A stretch of DNA of 25,217 bases from Candidatus Thorarchaeota archaeon. Its GTDB lineage: Archaea > Asgardarchaeota > Thorarchaeia > Thorarchaeales > Thorarchaeaceae. This document shows, piece after piece, positions 1,871 to 11,340 of this stretch. Every line of letters starts with the position of its first letter. Position 1 is the stretch's first letter. The notes under the pieces are model-generated. The model searched no databases. It was not told where the DNA came from and worked only from the letters and a program-made list of their open reading frames with translations. The stretch is from the NCBI GenBank assembly GCA_048882385.1, contig JBHLRQ010000041.1, forward strand, positions 1 to 25,217, written 5' to 3'. The translations under genes were made by a program, and so were the position numbers.

Positions 1871-4800
1871 CTATGCGATTCGACCTTTGATTAGCTGAGG
1901 TCCTAGAACATCATGATATAACTTCAGATAGGCTTCATCTTCAGAAACTACTGAAATAAGGCTCTTTGAATCAAGTGCGCCTCCAACCAAGATTTCTTTA
2001 TCATCCATCACACTAAGAAGCATTGGTGTTTTGGAATGCCAAATCCGCCAACCGCTCAAAGTTTCAAGCTCCTCTCCCGGTTCATCAGGTTCGGGAATTA
2101 TGAGGACCTTTCGCTTGGCAGTTCTGGCTTTGGAGAGCTGGGCTAAATCCAGACATGCCAAATCAGGAACTGAGATCACAACTGATTCTTTAGCTCGCCT
2201 TGCCATGTCGCTGATGTGAGCGCAGGACTCTTCAAAACCACTGAGATACCAAGTTCTGTCAGCATTCACGTCAAGAAGAATATCCATAGCTTTATGGATT
2301 GCATCAAGAATATCTACCGCTTTTGTTGTGATGTCAGTTACATTAGAAACAGTTTCAAGAACGGTCTGATTCAGAGATGAGATCTTTTTCTTCTGATCGT
2401 TCGATGTTCTTCGTAATGTCTTGTCAATTGCATCGTTGAATTCTGTTAATGCATCTCTTCGAGTCTGTTGCAGAACTGATACTGCTTCAGCTGTTTCATT
2501 ACTTGCCTCAGTAACAGAATCTGTCAAGACAAGATTCTTTCTAGCTAATTCAGATCTTGCTTTCTCTGTCAAATACGATGATTCTGTACTCAACTGCGTC
2601 TTTAGGTCGAGACCAATTGCTTCTAGCTTTCGTGCAGCTTGCTGGTTTGTTAAGTTTGCACTTTGGCGAATAGCCTCGATTGCTTCATTTCTTTTCTCAG
2701 TGGTTTGTATAGAAGATTGTTCCAAGAGATTTCTGAATTCTTCTGAAGCTGATTCAGATGATCTATGGAACTCCGTAAATGAGGAAGCAAGTTTGTCTAC
2801 TACAACACTATAGCTTTGGTTTGTTTCTTCTGAAATAATAGTGTCCAATTCTTCTATTTTCTCAGCAATCTTGCTTGGCATCTTTGTGAATGCATCAGTT
2901 CCTTTGGCTAAAGCAATAGCACAATCTGAACCAAATGCATTGATTCGTTCAGTTACTTCAGCTTCAGAATTTGAAATGAGTTCAGTGGTTATTTCAGCAA
3001 AACGATTGATTGCTTCTTCACCACGTTCCGCGATGGAAACAGACGCTTCATCAGCGGATTTTAACAAATCATTCTGTAAGAGCGTCAATTCGTTTCTAAG
3101 TTTTGTACCGAAGGTTTCTAGAGATGTTGCAACATTTGAAACTGTTGAATCAACCCAAACTGATGCTGCATCAAATGCCTGAGCGACTTCAGCTCTGCGA
3201 GCTTCAACCGCACGGATGACTTCATCCTTTGCACTATTTCTGTCCTTGACTCCTCCAGTTTCCCGTTCAGAAAGAAGAGCGTGAAATTCTTCTATATTTG
3301 CAGATGAAGCTTTAACTCGCTTTGTTGCGAGACGGTTTATTTTCTTGCTCGTGTCAGCCAGAACTCTCTGTTTGTGGTCTTTCTGTTCGGAAATGAATGA
3401 ATCAGCAATACTCTTTGCAGCCGCAGAACTCTTCTCGAGAGAAGTTGATGTATCTGCTCGAACATTATCCAATCGTTCTGCAATATTGTCTCGAGCTGCA
3501 TCGACTGATTGGTTGAACTCAAGAGAAACCTGATTCATTGTATCAGTGAACTGCTTTATAGTACCAGATTCCATTTCTCGTAGACTTTCTTCAGTACTCT
3601 GAATGGATGCCTCCAGCTTACTTAATGCAGCTGCCATACTCTCAGAAATTTCTAATCTCTTTTGAACTGCAACTTCTTCAAGGCTCTTCTTGACTCCAGC
3701 AACCGATGAAGCAACTTCATCAATTTTCATTCCTAACTCAGCTGAATACTCTTGCTGAAGTTTTTGTGAGTCTTCCTTGAGACTAGTCATCTCATTTTTC
3801 AGTGAGGTTTTGAATTCTGTATGTGCGGATGCAATAAGATCTCGTGCCTCAACTGTCTGACTTGAAAGAAGTCCATTGAAAGTTGCCTCAAGACCTTGAG
3901 TCAATGTGATAAACTGTTGAGTTATGTCATCTAGATGAGTATGGAATTCTTCTCGAATCGCCATTGTATGTTGTTCAATTCTGGAGTCTTGTTGTTTTAT
4001 GGTAGAATCAATTTCAGATTGAATTCGATTTGCGTGAGAGTTTATTTCATTGATACTTTGTGTCATCCTTTTATCTAGACGGTTCCTAAGTTGCTGGTAG
4101 AGACTTTTTGAATCACGTGCTTGTTTTTCAGCTGTTGTAGTGAAACTACCAATGAGTTCCTCCAATCTTGCTCCTACACTTGCTTCGTAGTTGTGTGTAG
4201 TAGTTTTAATGGAGGTAATCAATGCCTCATTTTTAGCTGTTGTTGATTTAATGATAGAATTGAAAGCGGATTGTAGGCGGCTATTCATTGTTTCTGCAAT
4301 GCTATGCAATTCAGTGGTTTCTGTATTCAGGATATTGCTTACATCTGTTGATGTATCGCCGAGTTTTTTTTCAATTGATTGGATGGTTGATGCCACCCAT
4401 CCATCAAGTTCAGAGTGTAGTGCTTTTGTTGCGGCATCGCAACTTTTCTGTTCTTTGAGATTCTGTTGTTCCAAAAGGTCGAGTACTAAAACCCTAGTAT
4501 CAGCTAGAGTTGTTTCACAATCATTGCCAAGTGTTGTACCTAAGTTTTGTAGTTCATCATACTCTTCCTTAACCATTCCATTCAATTTCTCTATATGTGA
4601 GGTCAAAGTATTTTTCATAACATCAATATAGTTTGCATCTGTTGAGGCAACTTGGTCGAGCTGCGATGTCACGGATTGGGATGCAACATCCATGAAACTA
4701 GACACCTCGTCTTTCCAAGACTCTACTGCACTGATTACTGATTCAGCAATCTCAGCACTGGCACCAATCTGACCTTTTACAAAGTCACTAAAATCAGCTG

Positions 4801-5764
4801 GAATTGTTCTTGCTTCCACAAGAACTTCTCGGAGGGATTCCTGACCAGCAGTATAGGTTTGTTCAAGTTGACTTTCAACACGAGTAAGAAGCTGAGTGAG
4901 GTCGCCAGAAACAGTGTTTAATACCTCGACACCTTCATCGGATGCATTTGAAACCATCGAGCTAAGTGTTTTTGTTGTTTTCTGGGCGATTTTATGAAGG
5001 ACCTCTGATGATGCAGTTAATGTATTTGTTACTGCATCCCTCGCAGCCTTGATCAGACTTGCAGATTTGGATTCGAATTCTGTGATTGTTGTAAGTGTAG
5101 TTTTTCGTTCAACTTTTAACCACTTATCAAATTCACTTGATATCCGTTTAACATCCCGCTCTAAAGCCAGTTGACTCTTATCAATCTCCTTCTGGAGTTC
5201 CATGATTTTGGACCCCAACCGGTTATCTAAGGTGTTGTCAAGTTTGTTCATTATTTCCTCAAGATCTTCAGACAATGACTCCATCACTGTACTTGCGCTA
5301 GTCTTCACTTGTTCAATACGACTTCTAACAAGCTCTGACATACTATCCTCATAGGTTGCCAGTGATTCACTTACTTTTTCGAGTGACTTATCTTTTGATT
5401 CAATGACCTTCCTAATTGCATTATCAATTGCATCAATACTTGAGCTAAAAGCTTTCTCAGAAATACTAGTAAGGTCTGAAACTTCATTGTTGACAGCTGC
5501 TAGCTCATTAAGAAGTGAGAGATTTGGAGGTATTGCCCGATAGACAGGTACGATTCCTTCAATCTCTTTGATTAGTCCTTTCTTCACAAGTCGCCCAAGT
5601 GTTTTCTTGACTGTAGGGACTGTTTCTCCAATCATTTGAGAAACTCCGCCCACAGTCATATTCCCTCCAATTAAAATAGGGAGAATCGCCTTGGACTCGG
5701 CATTCGTTATGCCTAGATTCTTTTTCAATACGGAAACTACTTCCGTAACTGCTTCATTACTCAT
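1871..5764 (-). CDS. Giant TrmB-like wHTH + ~1080-aa coiled-coil + PLD-like (TrmB effector-type) domain protein
   Basis: N-terminus LGITNAESKAILPILIGGNMTVGGVSQMIG..VKKTLGRLVKKGLI..YRAIPP resembles the TrmB wHTH. The long middle is amphipathic and nearly Pro-free. C-terminus ISDMARRAKESVVISVP..LLSVMDDKEILVG is PLD-like without a canonical HxKxxxxD. Start taken as ATG 5764 (ORF track 5797). Confidence 0.8.
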   Translation of the reverse strand: MSNEAVTEVVSVLKKNLGITNAESKAILPILIGGNMTVGGVSQMIGETVPTVKKTLGRLVKKGLIKEIEGIVPVYRAIPPNLSLLNELAAVNNEVSDLTSISEKAFSSSIDAIDNAIRKVIESKDKSLEKVSESLATYEDSMSELVRSRIEQVKTSASTVMESLSEDLEEIMNKLDNTLDNRLGSKIMELQKEIDKSQLALERDVKRISSEFDKWLKVERKTTLTTITEFESKSASLIKAARDAVTNTLTASSEVLHKIAQKTTKTLSSMVSNASDEGVEVLNTVSGDLTQLLTRVESQLEQTYTAGQESLREVLVEARTIPADFSDFVKGQIGASAEIAESVISAVESWKDEVSSFMDVASQSVTSQLDQVASTDANYIDVMKNTLTSHIEKLNGMVKEEYDELQNLGTTLGNDCETTLADTRVLVLDLLEQQNLKEQKSCDAATKALHSELDGWVASTIQSIEKKLGDTSTDVSNILNTETTELHSIAETMNSRLQSAFNSIIKSTTAKNEALITSIKTTTHNYEASVGARLEELIGSFTTTAEKQARDSKSLYQQLRNRLDKRMTQSINEINSHANRIQSEIDSTIKQQDSRIEQHTMAIREEFHTHLDDITQQFITLTQGLEATFNGLLSSQTVEARDLIASAHTEFKTSLKNEMTSLKEDSQKLQQEYSAELGMKIDEVASSVAGVKKSLEEVAVQKRLEISESMAAALSKLEASIQSTEESLREMESGTIKQFTDTMNQVSLEFNQSVDAARDNIAERLDNVRADTSTSLEKSSAAAKSIADSFISEQKDHKQRVLADTSKKINRLATKRVKASSANIEEFHALLSERETGGVKDRNSAKDEVIRAVEARRAEVAQAFDAASVWVDSTVSNVATSLETFGTKLRNELTLLQNDLLKSADEASVSIAERGEEAINRFAEITTELISNSEAEVTERINAFGSDCAIALAKGTDAFTKMPSKIAEKIEELDTIISEETNQSYSVVVDKLASSFTEFHRSSESASEEFRNLLEQSSIQTTEKRNEAIEAIRQSANLTNQQAARKLEAIGLDLKTQLSTESSYLTEKARSELARKNLVLTDSVTEASNETAEAVSVLQQTRRDALTEFNDAIDKTLRRTSNDQKKKISSLNQTVLETVSNVTDITTKAVDILDAIHKAMDILLDVNADRTWYLSGFEESCAHISDMARRAKESVVISVPDLACLDLAQLSKARTAKRKVLIIPEPDEPGEELETLSGWRIWHSKTPMLLSVMDDKEILVGGALDSKSLISVVSEDEAYLKLYHDVLGPQLIKGRIA

Positions 5765-5828
5765 ATGTGCATCCCACCGTTGAAACGGACTATCCATATA
5801 GAGTGGCGTCCTGTTTCTTTTACTCGGT

Positions 5829-8677: not shown

Positions 8678-9910
8678 CTAGAGTTGAGTCATCTCTAGTA
8701 ATGGCTCTAGACTGACTTCAACATGAATAGTCACTTTATCACCAAAAGCTTCTTGAATCTCATTTTCGATTCTACCCTTGAACTCCTGCACTTTGTCAAT
8801 CTGTCTAGTGATGTCATCCCGTAGCCGTAAGAGATCATTTGTATGGTATTCCAGGTTCTTCTTAGCTTCATTGAGTGCTGCTCGAAGCTCGTCATTTTTA
8901 GTATACACATTAGAACCTGCATAGGTGTGTCGCTTCTCCTCAATTTCCTTTGCTTGGTTCTGTAGCTTCGAAAGACCACCCTTCCTCACAATCTCAATCT
9001 CTTCAATTGCTCGACGAGCTAGTCTGTCCTTTAGAGGGAGTTTCTTGGTTTCTAGGGCTTTTTGAAGACCACCAAGACCCTCGAGGAGGTTAGGATATCC
9101 TTCCTTCTCTGCTATGATTGCTGAATAAGGATCATCAAAATATTCTGTAAGAGCAATCTGACCTGCTGGACCAACTCTGACTCCAGTATCATGTTGAAGG
9201 AATTTCTTAACCTGTTTCTTCAAAGGATTCAGTTTCATTCTTAATAATCCGGATATGCGTTCTGCTTGTTCGTCAAGGCTAAGAAGCTCTGCAACATTAG
9301 AAGTTTCAGTAAAAGCATCATATGCTTTCTTTGCTTCGGTGTATTCAGACTGGGCAGTTTCTATTTTACTTCGCACCTGACGAATTTGTTCATCAAAAAT
9401 CTCCTTACTAAAAGTCAAATCATGGAGTGTGTCGATTCTACCTCCAATTCTTTCCAAATCTTTGACCCAACTATACTCATAGAGAAGTTTACTGATTCTA
9501 TTCATTTCTTTTGCAAGCTCTTTCATATAGGAGTCTAATGATTTGATTGTATTCTTGTAGCGTTTGTCCATCCTTCTAATCCAACGAGCTCCTGCTCCCC
9601 AAAGCTCTTGGATAAAGTGTTGAATCTCTCTCTGCATTGATTCTGTGTTTTCATATGTTATTTCCTTGTCAACATAGAAATCATTGACTATCTCACCGAT
9701 TTTCATTGCGAATCTAGATGCAATCCCACCACCTTCGATATCATCAATTTCCTCTTCATCTGTGAATTCTTTTGATAATTCCTCAATGTCTTTCAGAGTG
9801 GTTTCTACAATTTTATAGCTTCGTTCAGCTTGTTTGATGAAATCCTTGGATTTATTGCGAAGCTGTTTTTTATACCACTTCTGTAGCTGTTCAACGGTGA
9901 GATTGGTCAT
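8678..9910 (-). CDS. Alpha-helical/coiled-coil hypothetical protein (~410 aa)
   Basis: Charged helical sequence starting MTNLTVEQLQKWY (ATG 9910), ending 9 bp before dtdA. The upstream extension to 10225 overlaps the divergent gene and is rejected. Confidence 0.8.
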   Translation of the reverse strand: MTNLTVEQLQKWYKKQLRNKSKDFIKQAERSYKIVETTLKDIEELSKEFTDEEEIDDIEGGGIASRFAMKIGEIVNDFYVDKEITYENTESMQREIQHFIQELWGAGARWIRRMDKRYKNTIKSLDSYMKELAKEMNRISKLLYEYSWVKDLERIGGRIDTLHDLTFSKEIFDEQIRQVRSKIETAQSEYTEAKKAYDAFTETSNVAELLSLDEQAERISGLLRMKLNPLKKQVKKFLQHDTGVRVGPAGQIALTEYFDDPYSAIIAEKEGYPNLLEGLGGLQKALETKKLPLKDRLARRAIEEIEIVRKGGLSKLQNQAKEIEEKRHTYAGSNVYTKNDELRAALNEAKKNLEYHTNDLLRLRDDITRQIDKVQEFKGRIENEIQEAFGDKVTIHVEVSLEPLLEMTQL

Positions 9911-10004
9911 TAGAAAAACACCCAACTTGTAAAGCTCTCTTTTGACAGGTTTATCAACTTTATGACCCATGACAGATTGTATGAGCACAAGAGCAAACAT
10001 GACG

Positions 10005-10050
10005 TTTATATCAAAATAGACAATCGGGTCTACAGCATAGGAACTGTGAT
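10005..10050 (+). promoter_or_regulatory. Putative TATA box and SD-like site for the 10056 gene
   Basis: TTTATAT at 10005-10011, and GTGAT at 10046-10050, 5 nt before ATG 10056. Both support a start upstream of the in-frame TGA. Confidence 0.45.
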
Positions 10051-10055
10051 CAATC

Positions 10056-10859
10056 ATGTCTGAGCCTTTGGAAACTGGAAATCGAAAACCAAGGCTGGAC
10101 GTCACATACAATGTCGAGTGTTCATCCTGAGGTTTAGGTCGTCTTGGTTTCTTCATAATGCGCCTCAGTCTGATAGATCCCGCTGGAAAGGAACGCTTGT
10201 TAATCCGTAATCCTGCGGAATACAAGAGTGGATTCTGGCAGACATACTATTCAGATGGCATGTTCTGCAAGGCATCGTCCACAGAAAGCAAATCCTTTAC
10301 TCTAGAGAGTGAGGAATCTGCTAAGGGGACACTCAACGTGTCTCTGAATCATTCCCCACTACTAGATGGCATGATAACAACAAGAACCGACATCAATGTC
10401 TGGAGCTATAATAGACCTATCATGCTAATTCGCCACAGGACAACAAATGTCACGAACAAATCCATTGAAGATCTTAGGGTATACAACTTCATGGATTTCG
10501 ACATTGGCGGTCCAGCAAGTTACAAGGACGATAAGGCGGTCTATGACCCAGAGAAAGGAGTCATGATCGTTTATGATGGAAATCCACTTCATGTGGCTTT
10601 GTCATCTCGTCCAAAGGCGGACAGGTGGGAGATATCAAAACCTACAAAGCTGCGTGTCGATGAAGATTCAAACGACCTCAAGAATAATCTCCGGCTTGGA
10701 CCAGAAGACGTGGCGACTGGACTGCAGTGGAATATGGGAAACCTAGAACCCTCTGAAAGTAAATCAGTCGACATCGTCATGACATCTGCGGCCAGCCTCA
10801 AAGAGGTCAAGACTCTCACTCCAGAAGGATGGAGTCTGTTCGACAAGAAGATACGATGA
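10056..10859 (+). CDS. Putative selenoprotein (267 aa): N-terminal CxxU motif plus beta-sandwich (galactose-mutarotase-like / glucoamylase N-domain-like) region
   Basis: ATG 10056 is in frame with the 10158 ORF: MSEPLETGNRKPRLDVTYNVECSS(TGA 10128-10130)GLGRLGFFIMRLSL... A SECIS-like hairpin overlaps the stop. The C-terminal part (TNKSIEDLRVYNFMDFDIGG..DDKAVYD..GPEDVATGLQWNMGNLEPSES) is beta-rich. Confidence 0.8.
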
Positions 10860-10897
10860 AGCGGGAATGTAAAGCTCAGCAGTTTCCGCAGAGAGTA
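10852..10897 (+). promoter_or_regulatory. Eukaryote-like SECIS element (form 2-like)
   Basis: The AUGAA core (10856-10860) opposes AGAG (10890-10893), giving tandem G.A/A.G pairs. Helix II is GCGGGAAU/GUUUCCGC (10861-10868/10882-10889). There is an unpaired AAA (10871-10873), a GC-UCA-GC mini-stem and a short lower helix UAC/GUA. Confidence 0.75.
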
Positions 10898-10902
10898 GGG
10901 TA

Positions 10903-10965
10903 GTCCCCGGTTCTTTTTGTCGATGACCTGACAAAAAGAAAAGGAAGGGGACATGAGTCCCCCTT
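10903..10965. terminator. Inverted repeats between convergent genes (probable terminator or processing structure)
   Basis: Perfect 11-bp stem TTCTTTTTGTC/GACAAAAAGAA (10911-10921/10930-10940) gives T-tracts on both strands. A second hairpin GGGGAC-ATGA-GTCCCC lies at 10947-10962. Confidence 0.55.
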
Positions 10966-10968
10966 GTA

Positions 10969-11340
10969 CTAGAGATCTCTCTCTAGATAGTCCACCAGCA
11001 TCTGGGCCTCAACTGTGAGGAAGGCGAATTGCCCTTTGTTATTGAGATCTCCACCAGTCAGCAGACCCATGTCCTTGAGAGAGCGCAGGTTCCATTTTAC
11101 AGTGCTATAAGGAACAGCACTTCGCCTTGAAACCATGTCAGCTAAACCAGTCAAGCTCAAATCATGATACCTGAGTAGTTTTCGACTCAATCTCAGCACA
11201 AGTTTCTGTGTATCGCTTAACCTAGCATCAGCTAATTGTAAGAACGATGCAAGAAGACTCTGATAAGTAGTAGAAACCTCACGCTCACTGAATGAGCGTA
11301 AGAACGCATTCACCTCTGCGTGACTTAATTTGATAGTCAC
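10969..11340 (-). CDS. Winged-helix DNA-binding protein
   Basis: LSDTQKLVL..SLTGLADMVSRRSAVPYSTVKWNLRSLKDMGLL..FLTVEAQML has a wHTH pattern. The start is uncertain. Confidence 0.75.
   Translation of the reverse strand: MTIKLSHAEVNAFLRSFSEREVSTTYQSLLASFLQLADARLSDTQKLVLRLSRKLLRYHDLSLTGLADMVSRRSAVPYSTVKWNLRSLKDMGLLTGGDLNNKGQFAFLTVEAQMLVDYLERDL

Follow-up and report, generated by a model that had tools for sequence, protein, structure and literature searches.

The locus and its features

The subject of this report is a gene at 10056–10859 on the forward strand of contig JBHLRQ010000041.1 of Candidatus Thorarchaeota archaeon (Thorarchaeaceae, Asgardarchaeota; assembly GCA_048882385.1), which very probably encodes a selenoprotein. 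The whole stretch of 25,217 nucleotides (nt) that was analysed is called the window; it is contig C41 of a host genome assembly of 3.70 Mb in 256 contigs, 95% complete. Under genetic code table 11 the locus yields an open reading frame (ORF) of 233 amino acids (aa) at 10158–10859, upstream of which lie a further 34 in-frame codons. This 34-codon extension contains one stop only, a TGA at codon 25, which stands three codons past Cys22 such that the motif becomes C-S-S-U-G. An earlier interpretation of the DNA, here termed the sequence-only reading, had proposed that the ORF extends through this single TGA to an ATG at 10056, and both the extension and the TGA after the cysteine are present as it claimed. 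The gene has a TGA stop of its own (10857–10859), and TGA is a working stop elsewhere in the window, where table 11 gives ORFs of up to 1308 aa. There are no tRNA genes within the window. The features of the gene are as follows.

10056..10859, plus strand: complete coding sequence (CDS), 267 codons and stop TGA, with UGA-25 read as selenocysteine (Sec)
10056-10058, plus strand: start ATG of the full-length gene, as read in the sequence
10119..10121, plus strand: Cys22 codon TGT, the C of CxxU; Cys in 36 of 37 distinct Thorarchaeota orthologs, Ile in the ortholog L068
10128..10130, plus strand: in-frame UGA, the selenocysteine codon 25
10158..10160, plus strand: Met35 ATG, start of the table-11 ORF and not the real start; poorly kept in orthologs
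10005..10012, plus strand: TATA-box-like TTTATATC, putative promoter of the gene; conserved upstream of the ATG in orthologs
10046..10051, plus strand: Shine-Dalgarno-like GTGATC, 4 nt ahead of the ATG

The TATA-like and Shine-Dalgarno-like signals had also been part of the sequence-only reading, and here the comparison goes further than the original claim. Of the 33 orthologs compared, most have (G)TTTATATC ~45–50 nt ahead of their ATG, while GTGATC (or GTGA), which we take to be complementary to the 3′ end of 16S rRNA, is kept at the same spacing from the ATG in nearly all orthologs. Since both signals are positionally conserved in nearly all orthologs, they are more than chance.

Coding constraint across the in-frame TGA

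Orthologs were sought with the read-through product (P0001) in 60 relatives, with stops read through, and 33 of 61 genomes (the window's own included) were matched, the ortholog matches extending over residues 1–267. The match reaches across residue 25 in 28 other genomes of the window's GTDB family, with an in-frame TGA in 27 and none in one (G025). The extracted and translated loci, combined with 37 named loci, give 37 distinct orthologous sequences (one of which, L018, has four masked codons close to its start). Codon 25 is TGA in 36 of these and TGT, hence cysteine, in L029, which belongs to the same record as L051. Alignment of TGA with TGA or with a cysteine codon, which the sequence-only reading had anticipated, is therefore what is found, and distant homologs have CxxC at the site. 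The N-terminal stretch, with the consensus M-S-E-[IT]-L-E-T-G-N-R-x-P-R-L-D-x-x-Y-x-x-E-C-x-x-U-G-x-G-x-L-G-F-[FY]-I-K-R-L-S-L-I-D, is conserved better than much of the remaining protein.

A minus-strand ORF at 8678–10225 overlaps the extension, and discrimination between the frames is therefore needed. This competing minus frame, open in the window, contains stops in 9 of 19 orthologs. Mean pairwise diversity at the three codon positions of the plus frame, over 19 orthologs, is 0.223/0.117/0.405 for codons 2–34 and 0.206/0.124/0.42 for codons 35–45, the third position being the most variable both before and after the UGA. Moreover, the NG86 method applied to codons 2–24 and 26–34 gives a nonsynonymous divergence (dN) of 0.236 and a synonymous divergence (dS) of 1.345 (382 usable of 595 pairs), or a dN/dS of ~0.18 across the flanks of the TGA. 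It is the plus frame that codes, before as well as after the TGA, and, in this respect, the predicted conservation on either side of codon 25 is borne out by the third-position pattern and the dN/dS alike.

The same comparison bears on where translation could begin. Of the 35 TGA-bearing orthologs considered, only 10 could start at codon 34 or 35, and 15 have no ATG, GTG or TTG anywhere in codons 26–45. Given the lack of a downstream start in these 15, together with the conserved TATA-like and Shine-Dalgarno-like signals before ATG 10056, the short 233-aa ORF, judged from the aligned sequences, cannot be the gene. Assembly error, a weakness to which the sequence-only reading had itself drawn attention, is likewise set aside: positions 10128–10130 are identical in contigs from four runs of four studies (one of which, run X1, may be the source sample), and the TGA, unchanged in these independent assemblies, is therefore no assembly error. 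Strain variants inside the extension (10076, 10085, 10145) are all at third positions and synonymous in the plus frame.

The SECIS element at the 3′ end

At the 3′ end of the gene lies an RNA element which, on its sequence and predicted structure, is a eukaryote-like (Asgard-type) selenocysteine insertion sequence (SECIS). Its parts are these.

10845..10922, plus strand: SECIS of three helices; overlaps the last four codons and the stop codon
10846..10851, plus strand: helix I, 5′ strand (coding AAGAAG...); pairs with 10913-10918
10913..10918, plus strand: helix I, 3′ strand; alignment columns 69-74
10856..10859, plus strand: AUGA of the predicted kink-turn core; its UGA is the gene's stop
10861..10889, plus strand: helix II, 8 bp with G-C and G.U closing pairs; apical loop AAAGCUCA (10871-10878)
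10891..10892, plus strand: GA, 3′ side of the predicted kink-turn core; columns 47-49 are GAG
10897..10909, plus strand: helix III, an extra hairpin after the 3′ GA and ahead of the 3′ strand of helix I

The structure was derived with RNAalifold from the first 19 sequences and assessed on an alignment (A4) of 36 TGA-bearing copies. Across all 36 copies, 91.9% of cells are paired and 16 of the 20 base pairs show compensatory changes. None of 500 column shuffles reaches any of the five observed measures, and pairing falls to 44–63% when the partners are slid. By helix, compensatory changes occur in 5 of 6 pairs of helix I (86.6% of cells paired), in 9 of 10 pairs of helix II (96.1%) and in 2 of 4 pairs of helix III (89.4%). 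The 5′ side of the core is ATGA in 32 and GTGA in 4 of the aligned elements; on its 3′ side, in the GAG, A48 and G49 are invariant and G47 nearly so. In other words, an AUGA..GA (or GUGA..GA) core is flanked by two covarying helices, for which a kink-turn geometry is predicted. The 8-nt apical loop opens with AAA, as part of a GUAAAG that hardly varies (of columns 27–29, two are invariant and the third almost); such an opening is type I-like. A covariance model (R1), built from TGA-bearing copies of the family, gives 71.2 bits at 10845–10922 and 50.7–81.3 bits on four Sec copies.

The sequence-only reading had placed here a eukaryote-type SECIS, drawn as a hairpin that ended at 10897. A covarying element is indeed found, and the AUGA/GA, the 8-bp stem and the apical AAA are real, but the description was too small: the element runs over 10845–10922, with an additional lower helix whose 5′ strand is coding, an extra hairpin, and a stop codon that is itself the UGA of the AUGA. 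This last arrangement is general, since the gene stops at the TGA of the AUGA in 36 of the 37 distinct orthologs, and all of the first 20 orthologs end in a TGA preceded by A or G. In the exception, L068, an indel shifts the 3′ frame such that the stop is the UAA inside GUAAAG, while the RNA element is intact (L068:2289–2366). That the element is kept through a change of frame shows it to be conserved as RNA and not as coding sequence. A similar placement is seen in L162 (~2250–2332), where, as in L068, the stop UAA falls in the apical (G/U)UAAAG and the CDS extends across the kink-turn core and on through the 5′ side of helix II.

Two simpler genome scans were rejected, as both were unspecific and both missed the SECIS of the host SelD gene (see below): a motif scan with 63 matches, and a descriptor scan with 20 matches against 11 in shuffled sequence.

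Selenocysteine machinery of the host

The components that selenocysteine insertion requires, which the sequence-only reading had named as a check, are all in the host genome. The tRNA-Sec scores 58.2 bits, above the Rfam cut-off, and ARAGORN reports it as SeC with anticodon tca; SepSecS (381 bits), a PSTK/KTI12 homolog (123 bits) and EFSec (307 bits) are present, and each of these four, and SelD, exceeds its family cut-off. PSTK/KTI12, tRNA-Sec, SepSecS and EFSec form a compact cluster on contig C4, 4425–8913 (L001, L012, L013, L086).

The SelD gene (contig C7, ~28300–30200, minus strand; L005) has one in-frame TGA (…THG-U-SCK…), and at its 3′ end, CCATGATAA…, the AUGA of a type II-like SECIS includes the TGA stop. 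The layout of this element, read by eye, is AUGA, N, 8 bp (one bulge), AAAA, a ministem, 8 bp, N and GAG. Matches to the NiFeSe hydrogenase and FlpD/VhuD families in the host genome have no in-frame TGA, and SelD is therefore the sole internal comparison.

Selenocysteine and cysteine forms across Asgard lineages

Beyond the Thorarchaeota orthologs, four distant, full-length proteins (P0031, P0050, P0034, P0072) have cysteines aligned to C22 and U25, in a CxxCxxC or CxxC motif. A phylum-wide search with P0031 matched 197 of 400 genomes, among them 123 of the 135 genomes of a second Asgard family, f9; a read-through query, P0107, matched 124 of these 135, from 13 genera. In 119 of the 124, the match starts at residues 1–6 (mostly 1–3) with one TGA inside, and in the remaining 5 it starts only at residues 12–14 with no TGA in the match. 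Ahead of the annotated f9 ORFs, of 286–295 aa, and in frame with them lie the TGA and, before it, a conserved peptide of 13 residues, giving the N-terminus (I/M)-V-L-K-V-x-[FW]-[NH]-[DE]-[IV]-x-[AS]-[TLM]-U-[ND]-x-x-G-Y-[LV]-M-G-F-S-I-K-E-L, and the f9 Sec is aligned with the Thorarchaeota Sec by MAFFT. In a set of 20 diverse f9 loci, every one carries the TGA where the alignment places it, together with a SECIS of the same three-helix order, namely AAAUCC, AUGA, UCAAAUAA, AAAAA, a CC/GG ministem, UUAUUUGA, GA, a hairpin and GGAUUU. The AAAAA and CC/GG ministem are type II-like; helix II hardly varies (compensatory changes in 2 pairs), and the third hairpin covaries.

The CxxU motif is also found in families f30 (C-T-V-U and C-S-I-U) and f16 (C-S-K-U), while an f29 homolog has the CxxC form. 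The f16 SECIS overlaps the last six codons, and its stop codon lies in the apical UAAAG. At the 3′ end of the f30 homologs only a plain hairpin of 11–12 bp is seen, which starts with GUGA and has no GA on its 3′ side; downstream of the f29 CxxC gene the RNA is unstructured (minimum free energy −2.2 kcal/mol). Model R1 gives 10–12 bits on the 3′ ends of f9, f16 and f30 homologs, which is insignificant alone.

All 20 f9 loci examined, and the f30 and f29 forms as well, have a cysteine 1–5 residues from the C-terminus (…DCK, …EC, …WCK). The Thorarchaeota proteins have no C-terminal cysteine and instead have one at −3 from Sec. From this distribution, we infer that the two may be alternative resolving cysteines for one redox-active Sec.

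The f9 loci have some features of their own. Their starts (L097–L106, L139–L158) are apparently ATA, 7–9 nt after a strong GGAGGT, with ATG at that position in L144, GTG in L139–L142 and ATT in L158 and perhaps L146; in L147 an ATG stands two codons upstream. These sequences suggest a conserved non-canonical AUA start codon in the f9 homologs. Five genomes of one f9 genus (L099/G235, L107/G242, G239, G264, G273) carry an insertion of 29–31 nt right after the TGA. The SECIS core of L097 (G231) is AAGGA, where 29 other f9 copies have AAUGA or GAUGA; natural variation of the core or a fault of assembly could each account for this.

Predicted fold and database relatives

The full-length product was modelled with AlphaFold2 from a 49-sequence alignment (A6) of Thorarchaeota orthologs, CxxC homologs and the second Asgard family, with a predicted local distance difference test (pLDDT) score of 92.2 over residues 1–267 and a predicted template modelling (pTM) score of 0.91. 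This supersedes an earlier 19-sequence prediction, in which residues 1–56 were below pLDDT 50. Strands 13–22 and 29–40 form the first β-hairpin in the model, with C22-S-S-U25-G-L-G at its tip (pLDDT 68 for block 21–30), such that the 34-codon extension contributes strands of the predicted fold. Position 25 (U or C) is among just 6 invariant columns of the MAFFT alignment A6; elsewhere in the protein DFDxGG / YKDD residues are conserved, and a loop with D147 and G152 is invariant.

Superposition of the whole model (1–267) with VIA-align finds the N-domain of glucodextranase (1ulv_A; Z 22.9 over 226 residues, root-mean-square deviation 2.6 Å) and glucoamylase (1lf6_A; Z 22.8, with 2.5–2.6 Å for both top structures), with dextran dextrinase also among the superposing structures. 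The phosphorylases of glycoside hydrolase family 94 (GH94) follow at Z 19.4–21.0, and galactose mutarotases are weaker at Z 13.7–16.2. Foldseek gives E 1e-9 and template modelling scores of up to 0.70; sequence identity to the structural matches is 8–13% (ten best rows). The product is therefore predicted to be a single-domain, free-standing β-sandwich of the glucoamylase-N / mutarotase-like kind, of 267 residues, as the sequence-only reading had guessed.

The 233-aa ORF belongs to no Pfam family and has no Pfam or NCBIfam match at E up to 0.01 / 0.1, a cluster search with the table-11 ORF returned 'hypothetical protein' clusters alone, and P0031, used as query for homologous proteins, retrieved none but itself. 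Searched by profile, a set of 1.84 billion representative proteins gave 105 matches. The close copies found there are all shortened, at 219–234 aa, and start at profile positions 34–49; a 46-aa ORF that ends just ahead of the TGA is also in the database, as is a fragment (P0012) that shows W in place of Sec, presumably because the gene caller applied a different genetic code. The weaker matches are an unannotated N-terminal domain of large transglutaminase, PKD or CarboxypepD_reg proteins.

Probable recoding of UGA-25 and its rivals

What computation shows, then, is a coding frame that runs through a conserved UGA, a Sec/Cys exchange at that codon, a covarying RNA structure, a host with the Sec machinery and a predicted β-sandwich. 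On this basis it is highly likely that the gene is a genuine selenoprotein gene with UGA-25 recoded as selenocysteine, and we infer actual Sec insertion at residue 25. Transcription would start downstream of the TATA box (10005–10012), after which the ribosome would bind GTGATC and initiate at AUG 10056. The UGA at 10128–10130 would then be decoded as selenocysteine by Sec-tRNA(Sec) and EFSec, recruited by the eukaryote-like SECIS (10845–10922) 728 nt downstream, with its putative AUGA/GA kink-turn core, upper helix of 8–10 bp and apical loop opening with AAA. Termination would occur at UGA 10857–10859, within the SECIS core and presumably too close to it for recoding, and the product would carry Cys22-x-x-Sec25 at the tip of the first β-hairpin.

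Several observations weigh against this interpretation, or against parts of it. No RNA runs are listed with the locus. An Rfam scan of 10700–11100 at E up to 10 finds no SECIS family and only three chance-level matches, and the single-sequence fold of the window element is unremarkable (z-score −1.45), with helix I of this copy weakened by two G.U pairs and one mismatch. In the host genome model R1 finds the studied gene as its sole locus, plus one match at E 8.9, so that the resemblance to the SelD SECIS is a matter of reading the sequence, not of a score. The expectation that the SECIS would be confined to TGA-bearing copies holds only in part: the f29 CxxC gene lacks the structure, but the Cys ortholog L029, outside model R1, still scores 40.0 bits, a weakened element against the 51–81 bits of the Sec copies. 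In the f9 genomes with the insertion the upstream peptide is out of frame, yet peptide, TGA and SECIS persist, which is better explained by a short upstream ORF translated on its own than by read-through; the insertion could reflect recent Sec loss, or could hint at a peptide that is translated independently. As to the CxxU motif of the sequence-only reading, it stands in the Thorarchaeota, f30 and f16 but is not universal. Most f9 homologs have no Cys at −3 from Sec, and its absence there and in L068 means that a CxxU redox pair is not a universal mechanism. With regard to function, no operon is conserved across the families compared (Thorarchaeota, f9, f16).

What the selenocysteine does is less certain than its presence. 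It is plausible, although offered tentatively, that Cys22 and Sec25 form a redox pair (a selenenylsulfide) that acts on a possibly carbohydrate-related substrate. A broader proposal is more speculative still, but possible: that of an ancient selenoenzyme family present in several Asgard lineages, with a fold missing from the selenoprotein lists compared, a catalytic Sec on the hairpin, a resolving Cys at −3 or at the C-terminus, a sugar-like molecule or a selenium or sulfur carrier as its substrate, and a three-helix SECIS around the stop that is maybe a general Asgard variant.

The main alternative to the redox centre is also conceivable, though on balance unlikely, namely that Sec25 is a metal or selenium ligand (with Cys22 or within a CxxCxxC motif), or a selenium-trafficking site, and not a selenenylsulfide centre. 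The spacing is typical of metal sites, being C-x-x-C-x-x-U in relatives from the genus of the window and C-x-x-C-x-x-C in distant homologs, and the model would place the motif on an exposed, knuckle-like hairpin tip; the gene is, moreover, near a GcvH-like gene and SepSecS in one Asgard genus. However, the first Cys of CxxCxxU is variable in the Thorarchaeota orthologs (N, T, S, A, E or D), most f9 homologs have neither Cys near Sec, the C-terminal Cys of all 20 f9 loci fits a resolving cysteine better than a metal site, and the SepSecS neighbourhood is seen in only two genomes of that genus.

If UGA-25 were not recoded at all, the TGA would be a true stop at which a 24-codon leader ORF ends, and the sandwich protein would start downstream, for example at ATG 10158. 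A clean 233-aa ORF does begin there, the shortened database proteins and the 46-aa ORF ending before the TGA are as such an arrangement would have them, f9 offers an ATG 18 nt past the TGA, and in 5 of the 124 matching f9 genomes the upstream peptide and TGA are out of frame. Nonetheless, this is very improbable. The downstream start is missing from 15 of the 35 orthologs, and one at codon 34 or 35 is kept by only 10; coding constraint is unbroken across the TGA, a Cys occupies the site in one ortholog and several distant homologs, and residues 13–40 make two strands of a predicted fold that matches solved domains over 1–267 (Z 22.9). A covarying SECIS would, in addition, serve no role. Least credible of all is that the UGA is read through as Cys, Trp or Arg (by near-cognate decoding or local code variation), or that the gene is a decaying pseudogene: P0012 has W at the position, but TGA acts as a stop elsewhere in the window, including at the gene's own end, the Sec machinery is complete and a SECIS is present, and the retention of TGA in 36/37 orthologs and 119/124 f9 genomes with a dN/dS of ~0.18 excludes a pseudogene.

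Comparison with known systems

The available text of Huang et al. 2024 (PMC11227280) gives seven Asgard selenoprotein families, SelD, VhuU/FrhA, HdrA, VhuD/FrhD, Prx-like, an AhpF-N homolog and DsbA-like, found via homology to known selenoproteins, and the same list is repeated in what is available of a 2026 review (PMC13188914). Five families are given for Lokiarchaeota in the accessible part of Mariotti et al. 2016 (PMC4989117), while the corresponding portions of PMC9723677 and PMC11291895 list HdrA, Prx and MvhD, and HdrA, Prx-like, SPS and VhuU, respectively. The family studied here is unnamed in the available text of all five (PMC11227280, PMC13188914, PMC4989117, PMC9723677, PMC11291895), supplementary tables aside. 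The suggestion of the sequence-only reading that the family may be new therefore agrees with the family lists compared, within the same bounds, and with the lack of a Pfam or NCBIfam model.

The studied gene shares with these seven families, as far as the available text describes them, the in-frame UGA, a SECIS near the stop, the AUGA..GA core (GUGA in some) and the same machinery, and its GUAAA matches the G[U/G]AAA motif reported there for the Thorarchaeia frhA SECIS (PMC11227280). In the accessible text of PMC4989117, the AUGA of the Lokiarchaeota VhuU.1 SECIS overlaps the UGA stop, and the authors argue that recoding is impossible for a UGA so near the SECIS. The AUGA as stop is thus common to both, but whereas that text describes one such gene, the arrangement holds in 36 of 37 orthologs here; it also occurs in the host SelD, and in two lineages the stop lies instead in the apical AAA motif. 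Where the gene departs from the seven families is in its protein, which has no Pfam or NCBIfam match to any of them and is predicted to be a β-sandwich, neither thioredoxin-like nor related to Fe-S or hydrogenase proteins. The SECIS differs too, as an additional hairpin is conserved between its 3′ GA and its lower helix, none being described in the available text of PMC11227280 and PMC4989117.

As for the fold, the likeness to GH15 (1lf6, 1ulv) and GH94 enzymes lies in the predicted N-terminal super-β-sandwich (Z 19.4–22.9 over 1–267). Unlike these enzymes, the studied protein is without an (α/α)6 catalytic domain and ends after the sandwich, with the Sec on its first hairpin, and no Pfam glycoside-hydrolase model matches it. 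The predicted fold also superposes on that of galactose mutarotase (aldose 1-epimerase; Z 13.7–16.2); there is no Pfam Aldose_epim match. A fold in common with glycoside enzymes shows no common function. With the CxxU/UxxC proteins of the thioredoxin superfamily (Prx-like, DsbA-like) there are in common the spacing, the CxxC homologs and a Sec that is the best-conserved residue; the differences are the β-sandwich fold and a Cys at −3 that is dispensable in most f9 homologs. The protein hence widens the structural range of selenoproteins to a sandwich of the carbohydrate-enzyme type, outside the thioredoxin-like folds typical of CxxU proteins.

Taken with the foregoing, the family is a real selenoprotein family, shared by several Asgard lineages and apparently not catalogued before. 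Its UGA would be recoded in the manner already known from Asgard archaea; apparently new, so far as checkable, are the family as such, the presence of this fold among selenoproteins and the details of the SECIS. The family, none of whose relatives is annotated, occurs in well over 150 genomes from at least four GTDB families of the phylum and adds to the seven-family Asgard repertoire one that homology searches from known selenoproteins could not find. Its annotation is wrong family-wide: since the close database copies are shortened, annotation and structure resources miss the first strands of the fold and the presumed active site. The SECIS variants are natural comparisons (a stop in the AUGA or in the apical AAA, a third helix, weakening where Cys replaces Sec) that inform both the proximity limit between UGA and SECIS and the archaeal-to-eukaryotic transition of the element. 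Should the three-helix SECIS prove to be a general Asgard variant, this would bear on the origin of the eukaryotic SECIS.

Neighbouring genes

The gene order is conserved in the Thorarchaeota, being D-aminoacyl-tRNA deacylase, coiled-coil protein, the selenoprotein gene, a TK0271-like winged helix-turn-helix (wHTH) gene and a 171-aa ORF. The neighbourhood is different in f9, with a DNA methylase and a Ras-like GTPase, and in f16, with radical SAM, GcvH-like and SepSecS genes. In the f16 loci L162 (G349) and L163 (G350), which come from two genomes of a single genus, radical-SAM and GcvH-like genes flank the CxxU homolog, with SepSecS (284 bits) convergent and ~550 nt away.

Upstream in the window, the divergent ORF at 8678–10225 (minus strand) has 515 aa from a TTG start and overruns the first 57 codons of the selenoprotein gene; it is the coiled-coil protein, with sub-threshold Pfam matches only. 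Matches of the 515-aa ORF in tblastn mostly begin at its residues 76–106. As conservation begins only there, the real start of the divergent gene is probably near 9913–10000, which would leave an intergenic promoter region.

Downstream, a convergent gene at 10969–11340 (minus strand) encodes a 123-aa wHTH protein with a weak match to the TK0271-family activator (NCBIfam E 3e-7, below the cut-off), and in all 37 named loci this TK0271-like gene keeps its synteny with the gene under study. Further away, at 1871–5797 on the minus strand, the 1308-aa ORF has an N-terminal TrmB-type helix-turn-helix (E 2e-9) followed by apolipoprotein-like coiled-coil repeats, the combination of such a helix-turn-helix with long coiled-coil repeats being an unusual architecture for a transcription-factor domain.

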